Positions 1 to 37,198 of a DNA stretch of 41,828 bases are shown here, in pieces. The position numbers and the translations under genes were made by a program. Source of the stretch: a virus (Duplodnaviria; Heunggongvirae; Uroviricota; Caudoviricetes); IMG/VR virus record IMGVR_UViG_2541047798_000006. One strand, 5' to 3'. The notes beneath the pieces were generated by a model, which worked only from the letters and a program-made list of their open reading frames with translations, made no database searches and had not been told where the DNA came from. How positions within the stretch are numbered: position 1 is the first letter of the stretch; the number at the start of each line of letters is the position of its first letter.

Positions 1-9
1 TTGTCTCCC

Positions 10-291
10 TCACATCCAGCCACGAAGTTGATGTTCAACTACAACCGCGTATTCATCGAATATTGACGATTTTTTTGCATCATTAATGATGCGCACGTTT
101 ACAAAATATCCATCTTCCTTAACACATACCGGTTCGCCATCTTCAGTCAGTTCTCCGGTTTCTTTGTACACGTTACCTATCACGTCAATAAGAATATCAT
201 CCTGCATCGACTCGTCATCATAATAGCCAATGCTATCCATAAAGGCCGAAAAGTCGGCCCTGTCTGCAAATTTGAGTGTTAAATCTTTCAT
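10..291 (-). CDS. hypothetical protein immediately downstream of side tail fibre gene (tfa position, not Tfa-like)
   Basis: 93-aa ORF; its start overlaps the stf stop at 291; acidic, no recognisable Tfa motifs. Confidence 0.45.
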   Translation of the reverse strand: MKDLTLKFADRADFSAFMDSIGYYDDESMQDDILIDVIGNVYKETGELTEDGEPVCVKEDGYFVNVRIINDAKKSSIFDEYAVVVEHQLRGWM

Positions 292-2663
292 TAGATTGAC
301 TCCCCCATCTGAGCATCAGTCAATGCCTTGTGCCATATTCTGAAATTCCTGACATGACCAAATAAATGACGCAACCCGGCTGTAGTCTGGCCTCCAATAC
401 GGATAATTGCGGAGTTCTGAATATAGGACCATGTGGCTTTCTTTTCGCTGGATATACGCCCGTTACTTACTGAGCACGTAGACTGATCTGACTTTACACG
501 CATCCCCATAACCATTTTTTCAAGCGATGCGTTTTCGTTTACCCGTCTGTTAGCCAAACCTATATCACAATAAGGAAATCCGTCGTAATCTGTTGAACGA
601 CCGAAGCCAAGAATAATAGCCGCTCCGGTTTGATGACCGCCGGTATCAAAAACACGCGGTGCTGCATTTGGCGTTTTATACCAGTTCTTATGTACCTCAC
701 AAAGAACCGTAAAAGGAAGATTATAAAGATTATTCTTAATTGGAACTGTAACTATATCGCTTGCGCGGGTCGCCGCCGTCGCTCCTGATATAATAAAAGA
801 TGATACACAAGGCCCATCTTCTACTTGTGGGGTGGCCAGATAAATATAGTCACCAGATACGGTTGCCCCGCTCTGCTTAGGAGAATACTGTATCTGAGAG
901 CCTATTTTTAACTCCCCATCAATTGCCTGAATTGTTGCCTCTGCAAAAATCCATCCGGTAGCTTCGTCCTTTCTGACTCTCGCTGTAATTCTTGAGGCAG
1001 CACCGCCTGTCATATTAATTTCAAGCGTTTGTGTATCAATATACGCATCACCAAGAAAAGTTGTTGCGCTACCGTCATATTTATCAAACCGGATACGCAA
1101 CCTTACCTGCAGTTCTGTTTTAAAACGACATGAGGTTGTCACGTGTTTATTATCGCCTGAGACATCAACTGACTTTGTTGCAGCAATTGATGCCATATTA
1201 ATGGCTGAGGTTTGCCCAATCAGAGAATCGTTGCAGACAAACTTTCCATAGGTAAAACCAAAATTATCCGTCCCTGTTTCGGGCACATCCATATTTGACG
1301 ATCGCCCCCAACTGGCAGGGCTTTCCGAATTGAGCATGTAGTTTGTTCTTTGCCCCTCAATAAGCAGGCCATCACGTTCAAATCGTGGCTCGTCAATGGC
1401 AGCCTCTGTCAGCACACCAGATTTGTTAATATAGGTTGCTTTCGATGCACGTTTAAACTTAACAATCTTGTCGCCAGGCATCGTTATTTCATCGTCACCA
1501 ATAACAATTTTTTTATATGATGGCGAAAAGCCCGTAATCATATCCAGCGAATCGTTAAATGGTATCCACACATCAGGCAGCGGCTGTAAGACATATTTAT
1601 ACGGCTCCGCAGCCTGGCTTGCGTACTCTCTGGCTGCATCTTCGCTTGCTTTAGCTGCCGTCTGGCTTGCTGCCGATGCTTTCGCTGAGTTCGCAGCCGC
1701 TGTTTCGCTCACCTTTGCGTTGGTTTCACTGGTTTTTGCTGCTTTTTGACTGTTAGCTGATGCAGTAGCAGAAGCAGCCGCCGCGCTTGCAGAACTGGCT
1801 GCGGCACTCTCGCTTTGGGCCGCTGCATCCTGACTGCTTTTCGCCGCAGTTTCACTGGCTTTGGCATTCGTTTCGCTGGTCTTCGCTGCCGTCTGGCTGG
1901 ACTTTGCGTTAGTTTCACTCGTCTTCGCAGCTTTCTGGCTGTTAGCCGCAGCAGTTGCTGATCCAGCTGCTGAAGTCGCAGAACCGGCTGCCGCGCTCTC
2001 GCTTTGGGCTGCTGCAACCTGGCTGTTTTTTGCCGCAGTTTCACTGGCTTTAGCATTCGTTTCGCTGGTCTTCGCTGCCGTCTGGCTGGACTTTGCGTTG
2101 GTTTCGCTCGTCTTTGCGGCTGTCTCGCTATTTTTCGCGTTGGTTTCTGATTTTTTAGCTGCTGTTGCGGAGTTTGCCGATGCAGTCTGCGAGGCCGCTG
2201 CCGCCTGTGCGCTGTTAGCTGCATTCGTTTCTGAGGTTTTCGCCGCGTTCTTCGATGATGCCGCTGCAGTTTCGGATTTCTTTGCCGCCGCTGCGCTCTG
2301 AGAGGCGGCTTCAGCGTTGCGTGCCGCTTCTTCCACCATCTGCTCAAAGCGGCGCAGTGCCTCCGGTCGGACATCATCCTCCGTCATGGCACCGAGAAAA
2401 TCATTCAGCGTACCTGGTCTGGAACCTTCATAGACGGTAATGGTCCCGGCATGTGAAGGCGGAAAACCTTCAACCAGCAGGGTGACGCTGTACTGACCAT
2501 GCTCAACATCCATGCTGTAACGTCCGGCTTCATCCGGATTTTCAGAGGCCACCGTGTTCACCACCACCGTGCTGCTGGTTCGTCTGGCCTTCAGCACAAT
2601 GGTGCAGTTCTGTACTGGTTTTCCTGTGCCATCTTTAAGCACGCCAGAAATTTTTACTGTCAT
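291..2663 (-). CDS. stf: side tail fibre protein, lambda Stf-like N-terminus with Ala/Ser/Thr-rich repeat shaft and a different C-terminal domain
   Basis: N-terminus MTVKISGVLKDGTGKPVQNCTIVLKA...GFPPSHAGTITVYEG matches lambda Stf from memory; C-terminus ends ...HVRNFRIWHKALTDAQM, a lectin/LamG-like signature. Confidence 0.85.
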   Translation of the reverse strand: MTVKISGVLKDGTGKPVQNCTIVLKARRTSSTVVVNTVASENPDEAGRYSMDVEHGQYSVTLLVEGFPPSHAGTITVYEGSRPGTLNDFLGAMTEDDVRPEALRRFEQMVEEAARNAEAASQSAAAAKKSETAAASSKNAAKTSETNAANSAQAAAASQTASANSATAAKKSETNAKNSETAAKTSETNAKSSQTAAKTSETNAKASETAAKNSQVAAAQSESAAAGSATSAAGSATAAANSQKAAKTSETNAKSSQTAAKTSETNAKASETAAKSSQDAAAQSESAAASSASAAAASATASANSQKAAKTSETNAKVSETAAANSAKASAASQTAAKASEDAAREYASQAAEPYKYVLQPLPDVWIPFNDSLDMITGFSPSYKKIVIGDDEITMPGDKIVKFKRASKATYINKSGVLTEAAIDEPRFERDGLLIEGQRTNYMLNSESPASWGRSSNMDVPETGTDNFGFTYGKFVCNDSLIGQTSAINMASIAATKSVDVSGDNKHVTTSCRFKTELQVRLRIRFDKYDGSATTFLGDAYIDTQTLEINMTGGAASRITARVRKDEATGWIFAEATIQAIDGELKIGSQIQYSPKQSGATVSGDYIYLATPQVEDGPCVSSFIISGATAATRASDIVTVPIKNNLYNLPFTVLCEVHKNWYKTPNAAPRVFDTGGHQTGAAIILGFGRSTDYDGFPYCDIGLANRRVNENASLEKMVMGMRVKSDQSTCSVSNGRISSEKKATWSYIQNSAIIRIGGQTTAGLRHLFGHVRNFRIWHKALTDAQMGESI
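1620..2330. repeat. intragenic tandem repeats in stf shaft (about 189-nt period, with roughly 30-nt sub-repeats)
   Basis: near-identical DNA blocks starting at about 1801 and 1990; protein shows reiterated AKTSETNAKSSQTAAKTSETNAKASETAAK. Confidence 0.7.
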
Positions 2664-2674
2664 ACTTTTCCACC

Positions 2675-2708
2675 AATAAAAAAAGCCCGCAGCAGTGACG
2701 CCACGGGC
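2675..2708 (-). terminator. candidate intrinsic terminator after lom
   Basis: - strand reads gcccg...cgggc stem followed by T8. Confidence 0.5.
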
Positions 2709-2814
2709 TTCAGGACAGTGTAACTTTACGTTTCCTCAAACGCAGTTCACCCCATAAGGTGGATGAACCTGCGTATCATAACAATATTTACAGAAGATAA
2801 ATCGGCGTCTGTTG

Positions 2815-3414
2815 TCAGAAACGGTATCCGATACCAACAATAAATGCATCCGTTCGCCAGTCGCCACTGCCGGAGCCTTCATAAGCAATATCAATGGCCA
2901 CGGATTCGGTCGGGTTAAACTGCACGCCAGCCCCCCACGCCAGAGACGTGTTGCTGTGGCGACCGTCATCACTTCCGGTCAGCACATCGTGCGTTTTCCC
3001 CGTATTGTCGGTCACCTGCAGATAATCCCCGGAGAAAGTCGACACACGGCTGTAAGCCACACCCGCCATCGCATACGCGCTGAACCATTCATTCACGCGC
3101 ACAGACGGCCCCGCCATCACGCTGAACCAGCGGTTACGCACGGAATCTTCATGCCAGCGGGTATCGCTGTAATGCGTTTTTTGCTCATCTTCAGCGTTGG
3201 CATAACTGAATGACGTAATCAGCCCCAGCGTGTCCGTAAACTCATAACGGTATTTCACGTTAATCCCGTTCAGATTATCGCTGCCGGGAGCGTTCGTACG
3301 GGCATGAAGATACCCTGCGCTCAGTGTGGCCTGCTGCTCAGACGCCCATGCAGGCGCACCGGATACGGCCAGACAGATGGCTGCGGACAAAATGGCTGCA
3401 CAAACTTTACGCAT
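2815..3414 (-). CDS. lom: Lom outer membrane protein (Ail/Lom family)
   Basis: 199 aa; signal peptide; ...[24 protein letters not shown]-terminus as in lambda Lom. Confidence 0.9.
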
Positions 3415-3435
3415 AATTACCTCTCGCTTTTCTGC

Positions 3436-3462
3436 AATAAAAAAGGCACCATTTCTGGTGCC
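3436..3462 (-). terminator. candidate intrinsic terminator after J
   Basis: - strand ggcacc-agaaat-ggtgcc followed by T6, between J stop and lom start. Confidence 0.5.
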
Positions 3463-3481
3463 CGTATCTGGGTTATAAAAT

Positions 3482-6400
3482 TCAGCTAATCGTGATGCCT
3501 GTAGTGGCTTTCTTCATCACCACAACCAGCAAATCGCTGATACTTGCTGTGGGATACCAGTTATTTACCAGCCATGCTGACACCGAAAACTCCAGTGTCA
3601 TGTGACCGTGACCGGCAGGCATATCAATAACGCCACTGTAAATCAGCGTATTATCCAGCGCGGTACGGTTATAAATTTCAGCACCGTTTTTCCGCACTAT
3701 CAGACGGCATGAGGAGTAAATATCAGTATGCTCTTTCTCATGTTTAGCGCCGCTGAATGCCACCGCCGGAATAACAATCTGCCGGTCAAACGGCTGATCG
3801 TCATAAACCCTGACGGTAATGGTTCCTGATGGCCACCGCTCCGGTGCACGGGAGTCCCGGGGGAAAGCTTTGCCCACTGTTTTAACGAGATCGCCTTCAA
3901 TCTGGTTCGCGGACAATTTTCCCAGAACCCGACAGTTCTCGTTAATCGTGACGTTGTTGAGCGTCCCGGAGTTCGCATTCACGTTACCGCTGATATCGGC
4001 ATTTTTCGCCGTCAGCCGCCCGTCCGGTGTCAGGGAAAATGCCGGAGGATTACCGCCGCTGGTAATGGTGGGGGCCGTCAGGCGTTTCAGGAACACTTCA
4101 TTCATGAATATCTGATCGCCCTGACCAACAAACATCGGCTTTGTGTTGCCATTCGCAGGATTAATCATCGCAATCCTGTCTGCTGCCAGCAGCACCTGAC
4201 TCTGCATGCCGTCAGGGGTGTTCTCAATACCGGCACCGATACCCGCAATATAAAGGCGTCCGTCCTGCATCTGCTGCAGCTTCACTGCCCACATGCTGTT
4301 CAGGTTATTATTTGTATCAACCTGAACCTTCTGTATCTGCTGGATCGCTGCACTCTGGTCTTCCAGTTTCTTATTGACGGTCTGTGTTATTTCATTGCTG
4401 ACATCCGTTATGGACGTCCTGATTTCAGTCAGGTCAGGCGCAAGCTGACCGTTATCAATCTGCGTCCACAGCTCCTGAGCCAGATGGGTTTTCCCTATCT
4501 CGCCTTTGAAAAAATCCAGATAGCCTGATGCATCATCACTCGGCTGACCGACAGCCTCCACGAATGCCGATTTGCCAACGGTGTTCACACTGCGAACGTA
4601 AAAATAATAATCATGGCCCGGTTTGATATTGATACTGGCGGCTATCCAGTACAGTGCCGTACCAAGATAACGCGCGCTGGTTTCAACCTGCCTGATATCC
4701 GCAATCCGTTTTTCCGAGAACCAGAACTCAAACTGTACCGTCGGATCATAAACCGCAAGATGCGGCGTGGCGGTTATCTGAAAATAGCCCGGCGTCAGCT
4801 CAATCCGCGACGGTGCTGCCGGTGCGGCAATCCGGAATGATACCGACGCCGGATCACCCTGCTGCCCCCAGGCATTTACCGCCCTGACTGTCAGCCTGTA
4901 GTTTCCCAGCGCCAGTTGCCTGAAGCGGTATGTGGTTTCCGTCGTCCGGGCCGTGCTGACCAGCCGCTCACTGCCGTCATCCGCTGCCACGGTCAGGCGA
5001 AGCATAAAGCTCACCCCCTTCACCACCTTCGGCGTATCCCAGCGCGCCAGCACCTGGTATTCCCCGCTGTCTGCGGTGACTTCTGCGGTCAGGTGCTGCA
5101 CTGCTGGCGGCGTGACACCGTTCACCGTTCCGCTCTGGTCGCCGTCAAAGTGCGCCCCGTTATCCACGATGGCTTCTTTCTCCGGCACATGCTGCACGGC
5201 AGTGATGGCATACGTGCCGTCATCGTTCTCACGGATACTCACACAGCGGAACAGGCGCTGGCGCAGCGTCGGCAGCTTCAGCCCCCATACGCTGTATTCG
5301 GCAACACCGTCAGGAACACGGCTCACTTTTACCTTCACGCCGTCGGTGACGGACTGAACCTCCACGCTGACCGGATTGCCACTTCCGTCAACCAGGCTTA
5401 TCAGCGTGGTACCGGAGGATGGCAGCGTGATTTCACGGTCGAGCGTCAGTGTCCGCGTCTGGCTGTTCACCGCCAGCACGCGCCCGCCGATGCTGATACC
5501 CGCATAGTCATCATCACAGATTTCAATGACATCGCCCGGTACATGGCGAAGCCCTTCTGCACCCACGCTGAAGTCCACGGTCTGCGTTTCCAGCAGCTCC
5601 GTTTTAATCAGCCACAGCCCGGCGCGGTGTGCCTGCCCCCGGCTGGTACAGCCAAAGGCATCCATCTTCGTGACGTTACGACCGTAACGGAGAATGGCCT
5701 GCGTATCTTCAACAAGCTCTGTCGCCGTCTCCCAGCCGTTATTCGGGTCAATCCAGTTCACCTCAACGGCATTATGGCGGTCCTTCAGGGCGCTGAAGCT
5801 GTAGCGGAACGGCGCGCCATCATCCGGCATCACCACATTACTGCGGTTATAGGTCCACACCTTATCCGACGGTCGGTCCTGCACGAACGTCAGCGTCTGC
5901 CCGTTCCATACCGGCATACAGCGCATCGCCGAGCAGAAATCACTGAGAACATCCCACGCCTTACGCTGTGTGGTCAGGTAGGCATTACAGGTGATGCGCG
6001 GCTCCGTGCCACCAAAGCCATCCGGCACTGACTGATCGCAATACTGGCCGATGACATACAGCGCCCATTTGTCCACATCCGCCGCACCAAGACGTTTCCC
6101 CATGCCGTAGCGCGGGTGGGTCAGCATATCCCACAGACACCAGGCCATGTTGTTGCTGTATGCCGGTTTAAACGTCCCGTCCCAGATACCGCTGTATTGC
6201 CGCGTCTGCGGGTTATAGTTCGATGGCACCTGCAGAATGCGCCCGCGAAGATGATAATTACGGCTCACCTGCTGGCTGCCGAACTGTTCCGAGTCCACCT
6301 GCACGCCGACCAGTGCCGTGTTCGGGTAGCACTGTTTCACATCGATGATTTCAGTGTATGACGACCAGAGCGTTTTGTTCTGCAGCTGGTCTGTGGTGCT

Positions 6401-6961
6401 GTCCGGCGTCATCCTGCGCATCCGGATATTGAACGGTCGCGGCGGCAGGTTATCCACCACCACCGAGGCCAGATACTGCGACGTGGTTTTGCCCTTAATG
6501 GTGATGTCTTTTTCCGTCACCCAGCCACCGTTACGTTGTATCTGAACCAGCAGGCGGACTTCCGACGGATTCCGGTCACCCTTTGAGGTGGTTTCCACCA
6601 GTGCCTGCACACCGAAGGTAAAGCGCAGACGGTCGATGTTTGCAGACGTGATGGTCCGGGTGATCGGCGTGTCGTATTTCACTTCCGTACCCAGCACCGT
6701 CTCGGAACCGGAGGATTCAAATCCCTCCGGCGGTGTCTGCTCCTGCTCACCTGCCCGGAACACCACCGTGACACCGGAGATGTTGGTATTCCCCTCACTG
6801 TCCAGCACCGGTGTACTGTTCAGCAGCACGCTTTTTAATCCATCCACCGGACCTTCAACCGGCCCTTCGCTGATGGCATCGATCACACTCAGCAACTGCG
6901 TGGACTTCAGGTTGTCCTTCGCTTCGCGCGGGGTATGCCCCTTACTGCTTCCTTTACCCAT
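3482..6961 (-). CDS. J: central tail fibre / host specificity protein J
   Basis: 1159 aa; C-terminus ...[42 protein letters not shown] matches the lambda J LamB-binding end from memory. Confidence 0.95.
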
Positions 6962-7021
6962 TCCTCACGCTCCATAAATGACAAAACCGCCCGCAGGCGG
7001 TTTCACATAAAACATTTTGCA

Positions 7022-7693
7022 TCAGCGACCAATCACCACAACCTGACCACCGTCCCCTTCGTCTGCCGTGCTGATCTCCTGAGAAACCACGCGTGACCCC
7101 ACGCGCATTTCCCCGTACAGAACAGGCAGAACATTGCCCTGGGCAACCATGTTATCCAGTGAGGAGAAATAGGTGTTCTGCTTACCGTTATCCGTTGTCT
7201 GTGTACGGGGAGTTCTGGCTTTCGGTGCCAGCATCTGCGCCACACCACCGAGCACCATACTGGCACCGAGAGAAAACAGGATGCCGGTCATACCACCGGC
7301 CCCAATGGCTGCCCCCCATGCTGCAAGGGTGGCTCCGGCGGTAAAGAATGATCCGGCAATGGCGGCAGCCCCCAGGACAATCTGGAATACGCCACCTGAC
7401 TTGGCCCCGGCGACTCTGGGAACAATATGAATCACAGCGCCATCAGGCAGAGTCTCATGTAACTGCGCCGTTAACCCGGACGTGCTGACGTACCGCCCGG
7501 CAATCCGTACCTGATACCAGCCGTCGCTCAGTTTCTGACGAAACGCAGGGAGCTGTGTGGCCAGCGCCCGGATGGCTTCGGCCCCCGTTTTCACACGAAG
7601 GTCGATGCGGCGGCCAAATCGTTGTAAATCCCCGTAAAGGCAGATGCGTGCCATGCCCGGTGACGCCAGAGGGAGTGTGTGCGTCGCTGCCAT
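7022..7693 (-). CDS. I: tail assembly protein I
   Basis: 223 aa, MAATHTLPLASPGMARICLYGDLQRFG... Confidence 0.9.
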   Translation of the reverse strand: MAATHTLPLASPGMARICLYGDLQRFGRRIDLRVKTGAEAIRALATQLPAFRQKLSDGWYQVRIAGRYVSTSGLTAQLHETLPDGAVIHIVPRVAGAKSGGVFQIVLGAAAIAGSFFTAGATLAAWGAAIGAGGMTGILFSLGASMVLGGVAQMLAPKARTPRTQTTDNGKQNTYFSSLDNMVAQGNVLPVLYGEMRVGSRVVSQEISTADEGDGGQVVVIGR

Positions 7694-22598: not shown

Positions 22599-22832
22599 AT
22601 GTCAACGAAGAACAGAACCCGCAGAACAACAACCCGCAACATCCGCTTTCCTAACCAAATGATTGAACAAATTAACATCGCTCTTGTTCAAAAAGGGTCC
22701 GGGAATTTCTCAGCCTGGGTCATTGAAGCCTGCCGCCGGAGACTGTGCTCAGAAAAAAGAGTTTCGCCTGAAGCAAACAAAGAAAAGAGTGACATTACTG
22801 AATTGCTCAGAAAACAGGTCAGACCAGATTGA
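22599..22832 (+). CDS. small hypothetical protein conserved near cos in lambdoid phages (possibly YlcI/DUF3950-like)
   Basis: 77 aa MSTKNRTRRTTTRNIRFPNQMIEQINIALVQKGSGNFSAWVIEACRRRL; family assignment from memory. Confidence 0.55.
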   Translation: MSTKNRTRRTTTRNIRFPNQMIEQINIALVQKGSGNFSAWVIEACRRRLCSEKRVSPEANKEKSDITELLRKQVRPD

Positions 22833-22889
22833 AGCAATTTAGATAATCGTGCAGACTACGCCCCCTCATATCACATGGAAGGTACTACA

Positions 22890-23300
22890 ATGGCTCAGGT
22901 TGCCATTTTTAAACAAATATTCGATAAAGTGCGAAATAATTTAAACTATCACTGGTTTTATTCTGAACTAAAACGTCACAATGTTTCACATTACATTTAC
23001 TATTTAGCCACAGAGAATATTCATCTTGTTCTTGAAAACGATAATACGGTTTTAATAAAAGGACAGGGTAAGGTTGTAAATGTAAGATTTTCAAAAAATA
23101 AATGCCTTATAGAAGCCACCTTAAAAGGATTCAAATCAGGAGAGTTATCATTTTACGAATACAGGAAAAATCTTGCTACAGCAGGGGTTTTCAGATGGAT
23201 TACAAATATCCACGAAAACAAAAGGTATTACTATACCTTTGATAATTCATTACTCTTTACTGAGAACATTCAGAACACTACACAAATATTTCCGCACTAA
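22890..23300 (+). CDS. hypothetical protein (possibly YbcV/DUF1398-like)
   Basis: AT-rich ORF; start placed at [11 protein letters not shown] after a GGAAGG SD; family assignment from memory. Confidence 0.55.
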
Positions 23301-25262: not shown

Positions 25263-25478
25263 TTACTCTCCCCGTGCCGCCTTACGACGGTCCTCTCTGA
25301 TTTTGAAATACAGGTTAGTCAGATATGTCAGCAGCCCAAACAGCAGACTCCCCAGCACGCCTATTGCCGCCCACTGAGACGGGGAAACCCTGTCCAGCAA
25401 CTGCAGGAACCAGTAGCCCGTTCCCACCGCTGACGTAGTGTATGACACACCTGTTGTGATTTTTTCCATCTGGTCCAT
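25263..25478 (-). CDS. S: pinholin, phage 21 S-type, dual-start
   Basis: 71 aa [71 protein letters not shown]; two Met codons at positions 1 and 4; GGGAG SD. Confidence 0.85.
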
Positions 25479-25785
25479 ACCCCGTCTCCCGTTATCCGGA
25501 AGCTGACAACAATAAAAAAGCCACCAGTTAACTACTGATGGCTCTGATAACTCATGCAAGCGTCTCAGACGATCCACTGACACTATCGGTGAGTTTAACG
25601 ATACCTTCCATTTGACTGGCTCACTTTTTATGATGATGCCGGTGCATTTATCTCCAGCACCAGACTTTCTATCTCAACGCCATACGTTGCATTTTTGGTA
25701 ATATCCGTCAGCGTCAGTGCATTTAGTCCCACTGCCAGACTGTCTTTTATGGCCTGGAATGCCGGGCCAGTACGATGACGTAGTA

Positions 25786-25989
25786 TCACTCCGGCTCAGT
25801 TGCACCGCTGACCACCACATCACCTTCTGCTGCAATCGCCTGCATCAGGGTATAAGGGGTTATGGCCACCGGACTACCAAACGGCTGCCAGCCCTCTTTC
25901 AGTTTATGTGTCAGCTTTTCCGCAAGATCTGACGGCGGCGCCGCCCTGACAACATCATAGTGTTTAAATGCCATGGTTCTTTCCACCAT
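25786..25989 (-). CDS. small hypothetical protein upstream of lysis cassette (possibly DUF1737-like)
   Basis: 67-aa ORF ...MAFKHYDVVRAAPPSDLAEKLTHKLKEGWQPFGSPVAITPYTLMQAIAAEG... Confidence 0.45.
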   Translation of the reverse strand: MVERTMAFKHYDVVRAAPPSDLAEKLTHKLKEGWQPFGSPVAITPYTLMQAIAAEGDVVVSGATEPE

Positions 25990-26234
25990 CTGAAAAATAA
26001 TTCTTTAAAATGCCTGACATGTAATACAGAAAAAAACACAAAACCATACCTTAAATAAAAACCTGATTATCAAGCAGATATGCATGGATAAACTACAAGA
26101 CGAGATATAAACCACCCTGTATTTAAATAAACAATAAACAACATCAGAAAAATAATTCTGCTCTATGGTTTAATTCAAAAATATCATTTATACTTTTCAG
26201 AACATCACCAGCAAGGCATAAACAAGGAAAGTAA

Positions 26235-26570
26235 ATGAAGTGGATTGTGATTGATACAGTTATCCAGCCATCATGCGGAATATCTTTTTCAGTCATATGG
26301 AGTAAAATAAAATTAATAATCTGGTATCAATCGGATGCTTTCTTACCTCCTGAAAGTATATTTACACTGACTCACACAGGCATCATGCTCAATAACAAAG
26401 TGCTGCCTGTAACCATTTACAACGTAGTACCATTCAATAAAACATTCTGGAATTTAATCAAAAACAGCCAGGAATGCCCTACAAATACAGATAACGTATT
26501 GAATGAATGCTTTAATAACCGTTGCACTCTGCAAATATGTCCTTATGGACTAAAACAACAAAGTCCATAA
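26235..26570 (+). CDS. hypothetical AT-rich cargo protein, Cys-rich C-terminus
   Basis: 111 aa, AAGGAAAG SD 4 nt upstream of the ATG; opposite strand to late transcription; very low GC. Confidence 0.5.
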
Positions 26571-26604
26571 GGAGTTTACTCACATCTGACAAAATCAATA
26601 TAAA

Positions 26605-26626
26605 CAGCCCCTCCGGAGAGGGGCTG
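26605..26626. terminator. candidate bidirectional terminator hairpin between convergent cargo ORFs
   Basis: cagcccctc-cgga-gaggggctg 9-bp perfect stem. Confidence 0.45.
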
Positions 26627-27017
26627 GAGAGTGGCGCTATGTGCCATTGCATGGTGCCGGGTGCCTCCCGGTGAATTCAGTACCAGCACCTGAATCCGCG
26701 ATTATCCCATATACCTACTCGCTGATTGCCCCACCGCACAGGGGGATTCACCATGCCAGTTTCTTTTAACAAACTCCCCGCAAACCAGACAACAGTCAAC
26801 CGCCTGAATTGTGAAGTATTTAAAAATTTCTCCCGCTAACTGATACCCGGCTAACAGTCTGGCGTTTTCTTTTTCAGCAACGGGAAAGCAACAACCACCA
26901 CACCCGCCACCAGCACACCGTCAGCCAGCACTGACATTATCCGGCTGCTGCAATGCCATTCACAAAAACAGTAAGCAATCACTTTTTACCGTAACAGGTG
27001 ATAATCCAGATATGTAT

Positions 27018-27371
27018 CTACCCCAGATGAGTAATCCGAAGTTCATCCATACCACAGGTCCTGGCTATTCTGTTGTACTCCTGAACAAGAGCAAATAATT
27101 CTGAATTAGCAACCATGAACTCATCGCAAACCCTCTGTATAGCATCACTATTCAGAATAATAACGTCTCTTCCCGAAAGACGATCAGGAGTACAGAACAA
27201 AACTGTCAAACGGCTGAAGGCCTTTGCTCGTGCTGCATTGACTATATCAATACGCTGCCTAAGGATGAAACACCCCGACGCCTCATCAATATTCACTCTA
27301 CCCACACCATATGAATGATAAATATTTAATGCTGAAAAAACCATTAGACCGTATAACAAATATTCAATCAA
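27018..27371 (-). CDS. hypothetical AT-rich cargo protein
   Basis: 117-aa ORF (TTG in ORF track; in-frame ATG at 27344 gives 108 aa); no recognisable family. Confidence 0.4.
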   Translation of the reverse strand: MIEYLLYGLMVFSALNIYHSYGVGRVNIDEASGCFILRQRIDIVNAARAKAFSRLTVLFCTPDRLSGRDVIILNSDAIQRVCDEFMVANSELFALVQEYNRIARTCGMDELRITHLG

Positions 27372-27481
27372 TACTTAACAGAACTTTTATTTTTGACAAA
27401 CATATAATATTTTCAACAATATCCTGAGCCAGGTATATTTCAGTATAAGGCTCTGCCGGAAGGAATCTGGAAGAATGAATA

Positions 27482-27558
27482 TGGCGCGCTGTACTGGATT
27501 CGAACCAGTGACCGATTGCTTAGAAGGCAATTGCTCTGTCCGGCTGAGCTAACAACGC
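27482..27558 (-). tRNA. tRNA-Arg (anticodon UCU)
   Basis: 77 nt; acceptor GCGTTGT/ACAGCGC, T-loop GGTTCGAATCC, anticodon loop CTTCTAA, 3' GCCA. Confidence 0.85.
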
Positions 27559-27571
27559 TGAATACCGATAA

Positions 27572-27652
27572 TGGACCGCCATCGGGGACCCGCCCCCCGC
27601 ACCAACAACCCTGTTATCGTGTCGTCTGCTCTTCCTGATAAGCTAATGGCGG
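27572..27652 (-). other. degenerate tRNA-like element between the two tRNAs
   Basis: acceptor CCGCCAT/ATGGCGG with T-CCA tail, D-stem GCTT/GAGC, T-stem CGGGG/CCCCG, but non-canonical T-loop GGCGGGT and no foldable anticodon arm. Confidence 0.3.
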
Positions 27653-27659
27653 TTTGTGA

Positions 27660-27735
27660 TGGTGGCCCTTGCTGGATTTGAACCAGCGACCTGGCGATTA
27701 TGAGTCGCTCGCTCTCACCACTGAGCTAAAGGGCC
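27660..27735 (-). tRNA. tRNA-Ile2-like (anticodon CAU; could be read as Met)
   Basis: 76 nt; closely resembles E. coli ileX from memory; anticodon loop CTCATAA. Confidence 0.85.
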
Positions 27736-27771: not shown

Positions 27772-27800
27772 AATAAAAAACCCGCTCGGCGGCGGGTTGT
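27772..27800 (-). terminator. tR'-like intrinsic terminator downstream of the late promoter
   Basis: - strand cccgc-cgccga-gcggg followed by TTTTTTATT. Confidence 0.6.
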
Positions 27801-27878: not shown

Positions 27879-28700
27879 TTACCTAGTTACCTTTTTTAAC
27901 TGCCGCTCAGCCCATGCTTCTTCAATATCAAACCGGGTCACCAGCGCATCATAGAATTTCTTAACTGTTTTTTCCCATGACGCGCGTGTTATCTGGTTTG
28001 TCACCTCGCATATAGCATTAAATGCCTCCGTTGATGGTAGTCTTTCATAGCCACGACCACCACAACGCTGGCAGTCTCTGATAACAGGCATACCACGTTT
28101 TACCGACTCTTCACGATGAATGGCGACACCACGCCCACGGCAATCCTTACAGGCGGTGGAAACCTCACCCTTTCCGCCACACTCCGGACAGGCAACTTTT
28201 ACCACCTCCCTGACTTTTTTCCATTCTTCCCAGTAAGACGGATACACACCTTTCGTACACTTTGCCCATACCGGCGGCTTACCATCCGGATACTGGACCT
28301 TGTTTGTAAAAACTACGCTTTCAATAAATTTTTCCCCATAGCAACAAGGGCACTGCTTTTTACTCGCTGCGCTGCGGGCATAATCCTCAAAAGCGTACGA
28401 AGCCATAATGCGCATCACTAACGGTTTTATTTCTGCCGGAAGTTTTCTCAACGCCGCCACACGATCGCACCGACTGAGTGCATAATCTGCCAGTAATTCT
28501 GTTGCCCGCGCCCTGTCATTCATACTGATGCCCATTTTCCCCAGGAACGCAGAAAACCCCATCTCAGCCCGATTCTGTGTCATGCCCTGCGCGGCCATCA
28601 CATCAGTGATACTCAGCGCATCTTTTGACGTTGAGGCCGATACATCGGTCAGGCCAGGGGATTTTGGGGAGTAGTATTTCGGTAAATCTTCCAGTTTCAT
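27879..28700 (-). CDS. Q: antitermination protein Q (zinc-finger, phage 82/QuuQ-like)
   Basis: 273 aa with CPECGGKG, CKDCRGRG, CQRCGGRG motifs; sits upstream of pR'/tRNAs/lysis genes. Confidence 0.75.
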   Translation of the reverse strand: MKLEDLPKYYSPKSPGLTDVSASTSKDALSITDVMAAQGMTQNRAEMGFSAFLGKMGISMNDRARATELLADYALSRCDRVAALRKLPAEIKPLVMRIMASYAFEDYARSAASKKQCPCCYGEKFIESVVFTNKVQYPDGKPPVWAKCTKGVYPSYWEEWKKVREVVKVACPECGGKGEVSTACKDCRGRGVAIHREESVKRGMPVIRDCQRCGGRGYERLPSTEAFNAICEVTNQITRASWEKTVKKFYDALVTRFDIEEAWAERQLKKVTR

Positions 28701-30946: not shown

Positions 30947-31102
30947 TTACTCCTCAGGTTCGTAAGCTGTGAAGACAGCGACCTCCGTCTGGCCGGTTCG
31001 GATTCGTACCTCGCAGAGGTCTTTCCTCGTTACCAGTGCCGTCACTATGACGGTTAAACAGATGACGATCAGGGCGATTAACATCGCCTTTTGCTGCTTC
31101 AT
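30947..31102 (-). CDS. hok: Hok-family type I toxin (HokD/RelF-like)
   Basis: 51 aa MKQQKAMLIALIVICLTVIVTALVTRKDLCEVRIRTGQTEVAVFTAYEPEE. Confidence 0.85.
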   Translation of the reverse strand: MKQQKAMLIALIVICLTVIVTALVTRKDLCEVRIRTGQTEVAVFTAYEPEE

Positions 31103-31650
31103 AGCCTGCTTCTCCTTGCCTTTCGGCACGTAAGAGGCTAACCTACATGTGTCTAGCATGAAATTGGCCTCAGATTAATGTTAAGCGTCTTGCAGGACGC
31201 GTAATGTTAACTGGGGCTTTTCTCTATCTGCCGTTGGTGTTATGCCCGAGGCAGATAGCCTCAAGCACCCGCAGCCATTCTACTTAACTACCGTTACCTC
31301 GCCAATGTGAAATCAGTCAGAAAGGCGATCCATAAGAACAATAGCAAGACAATAAATCGCCATTACAGCCGTAATAGCCAGCGCACATTTGAGAACCAGC
31401 ACCACAACCTCCTGTATTGGACGTACACCAGTCCTGATGAATATGAGGCTGTCTCGTCAGTGATTCAATACAACTATTGGGTATAGTTTCTCTGATTTTT
31501 TCTGTGGAAATGGGGCTCAACCACTAGTCATTTAATACGCAAAGTCCGATACAAGCTAACCTTCTAGTCCGCTTTGAGCGAAAAGCGGACGTTGGAAGTT
31601 TAAAACTCGCGAACTACTCAGCGTCCATTGATGCGTATTGTGTAACGTGA

Positions 31651-37140: not shown

Positions 37141-37198
37141 TTTCTGGTGACGTTTGGCGGTATCAGTTTTACTCCGTGACTGCTCTGCCGCCCTTTTT
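37141..37198 (+). ncRNA. dicF: DicF sRNA (ftsZ-targeting)
   Basis: tttctggtgacgtttggcggtatcagttttactccgtgactgctctgccgccctttttaa matches the DicF sequence from memory. Confidence 0.8.

Follow-up and report, generated by a model that had tools for sequence, protein, structure and literature searches.

The interval between the late-gene antiterminator gene Q and the holin gene of this lambdoid prophage is very probably a mosaic of independently acquired accessory cassettes set on an Stx-phage-like backbone, and not one system. The DNA analysed is a stretch of 41,828 nucleotides (IMG/VR record IMGVR_UViG_2541047798_000006), referred to here as the window. An earlier note, made from its letters, had singled out positions 25990 to 27480 as an AT-rich cargo island in the position where Stx phages carry toxin genes, with two convergent, uncharacterised ORFs separated by a hairpin. 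Both ORFs are present, one of 111 aa at 26235..26570 on the plus strand and one of 117 aa with a TTG start at 27018..27371 on the minus strand. The word uncharacterised suits only the second, whose core belongs to phrog_2873, a family of unknown function; the first is identified by homology as IraL, a characterised RssB anti-adaptor. Apart from the function of phrog_2873, the island is ordinary and largely already known.

Organization of the Q-to-holin interval

The late operon of the prophage is on the minus strand of the window. Read 5' to 3' on that strand, the order is Q, a tR'-like terminator, tRNA-Ile2, tRNA-Arg, a 92-aa phrog_2873 gene, DUF3927, and STnc100 with its terminator, followed by iraL on the opposite strand, the remnant of a nanS-p gene (DUF1737), a class II holin gene, lysozyme, and Rz (Table 1). 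Q, whose product contains a DnaJ-type zinc-finger region, bounds the slot upstream, and the holin gene bounds it downstream. Since the terminator lies directly downstream of Q, late transcription across the slot should need Q; in position this agrees with the pR'/terminator arrangement of Stx2 phage 933W. The DUF1737 fragment is a leftover of a nanS-p-type esterase gene, from its 5' end, and about 1.5 kb found at this remnant in an iraL-free locus (L028) is absent here.

Table 1. Features of the Q-to-holin interval, in window coordinates
Feature	Position	Strand	Evidence
Class II holin (phage 21 S type)	25263..25478	-	Pfam Phage_holin_2_1, E=3.7e-32; RefSeq class II holin
DUF1737 fragment	25786..25974	-	Pfam DUF1737, E=4.2e-17; RefSeq pseudogene without C-terminus
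iraL cassette, 630 nt, ~32% GC	25976..26605	+	Empty-site comparison with iraL-free locus L028
iraL promoter region and start mapped in CFT073 (= window 26202)	26160..26202	+	5' RACE sequence match (PMC4045071)
iraL, 111-aa RssB anti-adaptor, IraM/IraL family	26235..26570	+	NCBIfam NF007393; 8twd; WP_000871291.1
STnc100 sRNA gene (Rfam RF02076)	26596..26785	-	Covariance-model match
9-bp hairpin, intrinsic terminator of STnc100	26605..26626	-	Terminal stem of Rfam alignment
DUF3927 (TciB-like) small hydrophobic protein, 43 aa, GTG start	26851..26982	-	Pfam PF13064; phrog_1470; WP_000562553.1
92-aa protein gene, GTG start, phrog_2873	27018..27296	-	Profile match, dN/dS, homologue starts
tRNA-Arg(TCT), reads AGA	27482..27558	-	ARAGORN; Rfam 68 bits
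tRNA-Ile2(CAT), ileZ-like, reads AUA	27660..27735	-	ARAGORN; Rfam tRNA 72.5 bits; RefSeq tRNA-Ile
tR'-like intrinsic terminator just 3' of Q	27779..27798	-	Scan: 7-bp stem, then TTTTATTG
Late-gene antiterminator Q, 273 aa	27879..28700	-	Pfam Antiterm PF03589, E=2.6e-55; RefSeq antitermination protein

The region had been described as very low in GC, which holds for it as a whole (39.2%, the whole window having 51.5%) but not along its entire length. The stretch from 25990 to 26595 (32.2%) is the lowest 600-nt stretch of the window and that from 26983 to 27480 has 38.2%, whereas the middle part, 26596-26982, is at 51.7% about the window average. Nor is the hairpin the sole separator of the two long ORFs, as the 447 nt between them also hold the DUF3927 gene and the complete STnc100 sRNA gene. 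Two 28-aa ORFs reported from the same stretch are found at 26753..26839 on the plus strand and 26851..26937 on the minus strand. The first sits within a 37-aa ORF; like a RefSeq pseudo-CDS at 26641..26766, it is antisense to STnc100, and the two are probably spurious. The second is the ATG-start part of the 43-aa DUF3927 ORF.

E. coli SCU-125 has a lambdoid prophage next to rspB that matches the window at 99.9% identity over 36 kb; in it the tape-measure gene is frameshifted and the J gene incomplete. Given these damaged genes in a near-identical prophage, induction of the late operon may be irrelevant.

Position relative to the stx genes of phage 933W

The description of the interval as accessory (moron) DNA between Q and the holin of a lambdoid prophage was borne out, and the backbone is collinear with that of Stx2 phage 933W, which has, in order, Q, pR', tRNAs, stx2AB, STnc100, AsxR (on the opposite strand), nanS-p (L0105), and S. 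The tRNA block is 86.6% identical between the two, STnc100 about 70%, and the holin gene 93% identical to S; the first 109 nt of L0105 align to the DUF1737 fragment with 84% identity, nanS-p being a gene in 933W and only a fragment here. These aligned blocks place the stx2AB-equivalent slot at 27473..26815, where the window has the phrog_2873 and DUF3927 genes and 933W has stx2AB. The 933W copy of STnc100 lies 75 nt after stxB, and STnc100 thus closes the cargo slot in both phages.

The assignment of the whole island to the stx position therefore stands in part: the 92-aa gene and DUF3927 fill the slot between tRNA-Arg and STnc100, but iraL lies outside it, at the AsxR-equivalent site between STnc100 and nanS-p and, like AsxR, on the opposite strand. 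This positional map puts iraL at the AsxR-equivalent site and not at the stx site. The slot had also been called free of toxin genes, and we agree: neither the ORF listing nor the Pfam and NCBIfam family scans revealed Stx A or B subunits, and there was no Stx family match to an A-subunit (~319 aa) or B-subunit (~89 aa) gene in 27473..26815.

Independent exchange of cassettes

Viral loci were compared using the 80 IMG/VR loci that carry the 92-aa gene. The unit phrog_2873, DUF3927, STnc100 is constant in this order wherever enough downstream DNA is present; what follows it on the 3' side varies. In 56 of the 80 loci the next elements are iraL (on the opposite strand) and DUF1737, in 15 they are two TolA-like genes, and in 2 DUF1737 comes directly; at least 17 of the 80 carry the 92-aa gene without iraL. 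The reverse is seen in E. coli O157:H16 98-3133, where the tRNAs and STnc100 are followed directly by iraL, with no phrog_2873 and no DUF3927. Of 5426 complete E. coli genomes, 1446 have iraL, 1185 have the 92-aa gene, and 863 have the whole island (at least 80% covered); in hundreds of E. coli genomes the island is 99-100% conserved. Every mapped cassette junction coincides with an STnc100 copy.

The iraL cassette itself was delimited by comparison with the iraL-free locus L028, in which homology ends at window position 26606 and resumes at 25975. The STnc100 terminator marks one of its edges and the beginning of the DUF1737 ORF marks the other, and we conclude that the iraL cassette is an independently inserted moron.

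The two long ORFs are convergent and AT-rich and occupy a classic moron site, and the genomes in which both occur together over at least 80% of the island are numerous, as counted above; all of this could be taken to mean that they form one toxin-antitoxin, exclusion, or anti-phage pair with the hairpin as a shared terminator. The earlier note had proposed a virulence, exclusion, or defence function and had asked whether the same pair recurs in this slot in other prophages. In the 80 viral loci and in O157:H16 98-3133 the two genes are inherited independently. Their unequal spread and separate occurrence indicate that iraL and the 92-aa gene are independent cargo and not a functional pair. In addition, the hairpin is part of the intervening sRNA gene and has a T run on one strand only, IraL has a demonstrated and unrelated function (PMC4045071), and no PADLOC model matches the 92-aa protein, DUF3927, or IraL at E<=0.1, which also counts against the proposed defence function. 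We regard a single paired system as hardly credible and favor cargo cassettes that are exchanged independently of one another.

The 111-aa ORF encodes the anti-adaptor IraL

The 111-aa protein, a member of the IraM/IraL/RssC family of RssB anti-adaptors, matches NCBIfam NF007393 ("anti-adapter protein IraM") with 162 bits against a cutoff of 121, over residues 1-110 of 111. In the remote-homology search that had been suggested for it, its first 78 residues matched a solved structure of IraM, chain 8twd_A, with E=9e-32. The same protein accession, WP_000871291.1, is shared by the window and the phi-potB prophage of uropathogenic E. coli CFT073, the genes differing by 1 nt. In CFT073, IraL binds RssB and raises the level and stability of sigma-S in log phase, and iraL has a mapped sigma-70 start site of its own and is active in log-phase lysogens (Hryckowian et al. 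2014, PMC4045071). The K-12 homologue IraM, which is encoded on the e14 prophage, is 58.9% identical to IraL, and iraL is enriched among uropathogenic E. coli and Shigella isolates (PMC4045071). IraM acts upon Mg2+ starvation, and in its complex with RssB it keeps RssB open yet inhibited and unable to bind sigma-S (PMC10844676).

The likeness to CFT073 extends beyond the gene. In phi-potB, Q, the tRNAs, DUF3927, STnc100, iraL on the opposite strand, the DUF1737 fragment, and the holin gene occur in the same order, and the late region is 97-98% identical in DNA sequence, whereas the remainder of that prophage is mosaic at 76-92%. CFT073 has an IS200 between Q and the tRNAs, of which it has three; the window has two tRNAs and no IS200. 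By comparison with CFT073, iraL in a lysogen of this prophage would be transcribed from its own sigma-70 promoter, and IraL would bind the adaptor RssB so that sigma-S (RpoS) is not handed to ClpXP. Sigma-S would then build up during exponential growth and prime the general stress response. IraL is a horizontally acquired means of raising RpoS in growing cells; its recognition accounts for the island, and the mechanism gains nothing new. The expectation that the 111-aa ORF is late-operon cargo, expressed when the phage is induced, does not fit a gene that is antisense to the late operon and that has its own sigma-70 start in CFT073.

Upstream of iraL, the -10 element TATACT and the start-site sequence are intact at window 26188-26202 (plus strand). 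Compared with CFT073, the predicted -35 region has lost 1 nt, a deletion that changes TTTACA to GTTTAA with the spacing unchanged; further differences are G to A at -1 and, directly ahead of the start-codon sequence AAATG, CC to GT. Because of the -35 deletion and the changed bases before AAATG, expression of this allele is only putative. In JJ1886, the copy with a variant -35 region is iraL2, for which the expression status is given as not known (PMC4045071). As iraL lacks a dedicated terminator, its transcription may continue into STnc100 in antisense orientation, and if it does, Q-driven late transcription might silence iraL on induction.

The -35 deletion also bears on whether the whole island is inert debris of a defective prophage, with iraL silenced by the loss in its promoter together with H-NS coating. 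The cassette has a GC content of only 32%, nanS-p and DUF1327 survive as remnants, and the tape-measure gene of the sister prophage in SCU-125 is frameshifted, all of which would agree with decay. Against this, IraL is undamaged and has the sequence of the active protein from CFT073, its gene retains the -10 element and the start site, the island is conserved as described above, and STnc100 copies are expressed in uninduced EDL933 (PMC5331693). We therefore consider inert debris unlikely and retain the reading of the interval as a set of exchangeable cassettes.

The hairpin is the terminator of an STnc100 sRNA gene

The sRNA gene matches the full STnc100 model (positions 1-206 of 206) with 130.5 bits against a gathering score of 47 (E=1.4e-29), its central region being shorter than the Rfam consensus. 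The hairpin at 26605-26626 is real, with 9 pairs, 7 of them G-C, and a 4-nt loop; the terminator scan of the minus strand finds it followed by TTTATATTGA. The minus-strand 3' flank reads TTTATATT, whereas the plus-strand flank, GAGAGTGG, has no T run, and the hairpin therefore terminates on the minus strand only.

EDL933 carries 11 STnc100 copies, which are transcribed; expression was seen in uninduced cells, and a Northern blot verified one of the copies (PMC5331693). EcOnc27, an Hfq-binding sRNA, overlaps the copy that lies downstream of stx2B (PMC12711010), and PasD, a family of Hfq-dependent sRNAs from prophages, is a relative of STnc100 (bioRxiv 10.64898/2026.05.13.724894). The site described for PasD/STnc100, downstream of Q and upstream of an esterase gene, is the site occupied here (bioRxiv 10.64898/2026.05.13.724894). 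The sRNA of the window, as a member of this prophage family, would likewise associate with Hfq. The window has a single copy, whereas one STEC prophage (L004) has five, four of them in tandem. In the lysogen, the STnc100 terminator probably also halts transcription arriving from the tRNA and cargo side, and after induction Q-modified polymerase would read through it.

A conserved 92-aa gene within the 117-aa ORF

The 117-aa ORF is best understood as a 92-aa gene that begins at an internal GTG (27296), preceded by an N-terminal extension that looks non-coding; the 92-aa frame is the real core. Residues 1-92 match phrog_2873 with E=5.6e-58. Full-length distant homologues are 91-95 aa long and start at the position of the internal GTG, and in two homologous loci (L007 and L008) this start has a ribosome-binding site, AGGAG or AAGGGA, in front of it. 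Against one homologue of 55% identity, taken from an STEC prophage, the core (codons 28-117) has a dN/dS of 0.26 and codons 1-27 have one of 0.68; within the 90 codons of the core, positions 1, 2, and 3 differ 24/23/43 times, a third-position excess, while no codon-position bias is seen in the first 26-27 codons. This pattern of substitution indicates that the 92-aa gene is under purifying selection.

RefSeq has no feature under the 92-aa gene in any record examined, including all 11 full-length matches listed from the 1185 genomes, and this silence would be explained if the region were non-coding spacer or decayed DNA with an ORF there by chance. The 117-aa ORF has a TTG start, no clear ribosome-binding site, and an unbiased beginning (its first 26 codons). 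Its length is also weak evidence of a gene, because 2000 Markov shuffles gave a longest ORF of at least 111 aa in 8.8% (and two such ORFs in 0.3%); the reality of the genes rests on homology instead. That homology speaks clearly against a chance ORF: homologues down to 32% identity keep the 91-95 aa length and the same motifs, and the selection pattern, the ribosome-binding sites before the short start, the phrog_2873 match, and a confident structure model all point the same way. It is very unlikely that the region is non-coding; we read it as a RefSeq-unannotated, conserved 92-aa prophage gene that occurs in about 22% of complete E. coli genomes.

The structure check suggested for the 117-aa ORF gave a mixed outcome when applied to its core. 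The AlphaFold2 model is a helical hairpin, two long helices joined by a conserved TPDR loop (mean pLDDT 85), but fold searches with Foldseek gave nothing significant (best PDB match E=0.38, to generic helical hairpins; best BFVD match E=0.48). Pfam, NCBIfam, and PADLOC scans of the 92-aa protein had no match. Most members of the family are acidic, with a pI of about 5. A profile search of 1.8 billion representative proteins returned 22 relatives, and a tblastn search of phage records with the 117-aa ORF gave a single record, mEp460_ev081. A locus search with five sequences led to three species genomes only (E. coli, Citrobacter braakii, and a MAG labelled Bacillota), which suggests that the phrog_2873 family is narrow. 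We claim no promoter for the 92-aa gene, since a consensus promoter scan gave 6 promoter-like sites, no better than the 5.6 found in shuffled sequence.

In Citrobacter braakii and the MAG contig, the phrog_2873 gene precedes a TerB-like gene, DUF3927, holin genes, and an endolysin gene. The homologue in an STEC prophage follows an AraC-like regulator, and others follow a GerE-type regulator or lie near a PapB/usher fimbrial operon. These neighbourhoods of distant homologues point only in general terms to a protein-binding accessory role. Because divergent homologues adjoin AraC-like, GerE-type, and PapB regulators and others precede TerB-like, TciB-like, and holin genes, the 92-aa protein is possibly a small modulator that binds a regulator of the host or of a phage. 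We also considered whether it might be the TciC protein of phage P1 and rejected this, as TciC has 35 aa and no phrog_2873 gene is annotated in that P1 region.

DUF3927 and its association with the 92-aa gene

The 43-aa DUF3927 protein matches Pfam PF13064 over residues 2-43 with 95.6 bits against a gathering score of 25 (E=1.7e-27) and phrog_1470 ("TciB-like") with E=7.8e-13; it is hydrophobic, with a GRAVY of 0.95. Only 35 nt separate it from the 92-aa gene, and the adjacency is retained in phrog_2873 homologues at 38-63% identity. The name TciB comes from phage P1, where the Tci function was itself attributed by homology only. A literature search on DUF3927 returned nothing functional, and one on TciA/TciB returned almost only Trypanosoma papers.

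In the P1 tciA-tciB, Citrobacter, and L007 loci, a TerB-like gene lies immediately upstream of DUF3927. That gene is absent here: no TerB ORF (the TciA-like partner) was found in the 35-nt gap or in the ORF list. Gene neighbourhood suggests, as a best guess, that DUF3927 is a small peptide of the membrane and the 92-aa protein its small, soluble, helical partner; the same neighbourhoods would allow the pair to be what is left of a phrog_2873/TerB-like/TciB cassette, perhaps acting on the host envelope or a host regulator. That the phrog_2873 protein and DUF3927 are an unrecognised lysogenic-conversion or late-expressed factor is a tentative idea that we think more doubtful than probable. P1 TciB and its Citrobacter braakii homologue share with the DUF3927 protein described here the core ...SVLADGVLV...P(L/I)L(K/R)K, whereas the N-terminal hydrophobic segment of both is replaced. 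The P1 tciA-tciB cassette and its counterparts adjoin phage tRNA genes, as DUF3927 does in the window.

Small RNA copies and cargo exchange

Cassette junctions in the compared loci are marked by copies of the small RNA gene STnc100, and these copies could serve as recombination sites for cargo swapping. The interval between the Q and holin genes of a STEC prophage (L004) contains five STnc100 copies (4575-4787 and 6547-7526), four of which lie in tandem immediately upstream of nanS-p. In the window, a trace of the nanS-p-type esterase gene persists as the stump encoding DUF1737; alignment against L028, a locus that lacks iraL, shows that approximately 1.5 kb of L028 is absent from the window at this ORF, and that 16 nt (25755-25770) match both flanks of the deletion. 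The RefSeq pseudogene annotated opposite STnc100 is simply the antisense strand of the small RNA gene; it is therefore probably an annotation artefact that has been propagated across genomes.

Features of the prophage discussed in this section, with window coordinates
Feature	Coordinates	Strand	Details
AT-rich patch no. 2	22599-23300	+	31-36% GC; downstream of lysis genes
DUF1737 ORF	25755-25975	-	stump of nanS-p-type esterase gene, together with the 16-nt match
iraL	26235-26570	+	cargo gene
RefSeq pseudogene	26641-26766	+	"hypothetical protein, incomplete"
phrog_2873 gene	27018-27296	-	92 aa, conserved; also in L004, L005 and L010
Phage tRNAs	27482-27735	-
Q antiterminator	27879-28700	-
Sok antitoxin RNA	31097-31270	-	Rfam RF01794, 118 bits
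DicF sRNA	37142-37193	+	RF00039, 76.7 bits; early left operon

The cargo genes and their neighbors

Of 5,426 complete E. coli genomes, 1,185 carry the conserved 92-aa phrog_2873 gene. RefSeq places no annotation at its position in the 11 full-length matches listed from E. coli genomes, nor does it in SCU-125, CFT073, and strain 07-4299. A distant homologue, P0069 (91 aa), was observed on a metagenomic contig (L095, 2507-4276), where genes for a PapB-type regulator and a fimbrial usher are located 1.2 kb away in divergent orientation; here the family occurs outside a phage setting.

Rare codons matching the adjacent phage tRNAs are abundant in both cargo genes: ATA accounts for 6 of the 13 Ile codons in iraL and 3 of 9 in the 92-aa gene, and 5 of the 10 Arg codons in the latter are AGA or AGG. 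Within the Q antiterminator lies a zinc-finger segment of the DnaJ type (CXXCXGXG), scored by Pfam below cutoff at E=2e-6; it may explain the label "Fels-1 prophage chaperone" reported for a common neighbor of STnc100.

Other accessory regions

The second AT-rich patch encodes DUF1398 (ydfO-like) and YlcI/YnfO-family genes; as their orientation is opposite to that of the late operon, the patch is a further moron site. Two other small RNAs were found in the prophage: Sok adjoins the toxin gene hokD in the region of the early-to-late transition, and in the nearly identical sister prophage of SCU-125, DicF lies close to kil and to a truncated copy of dicB.
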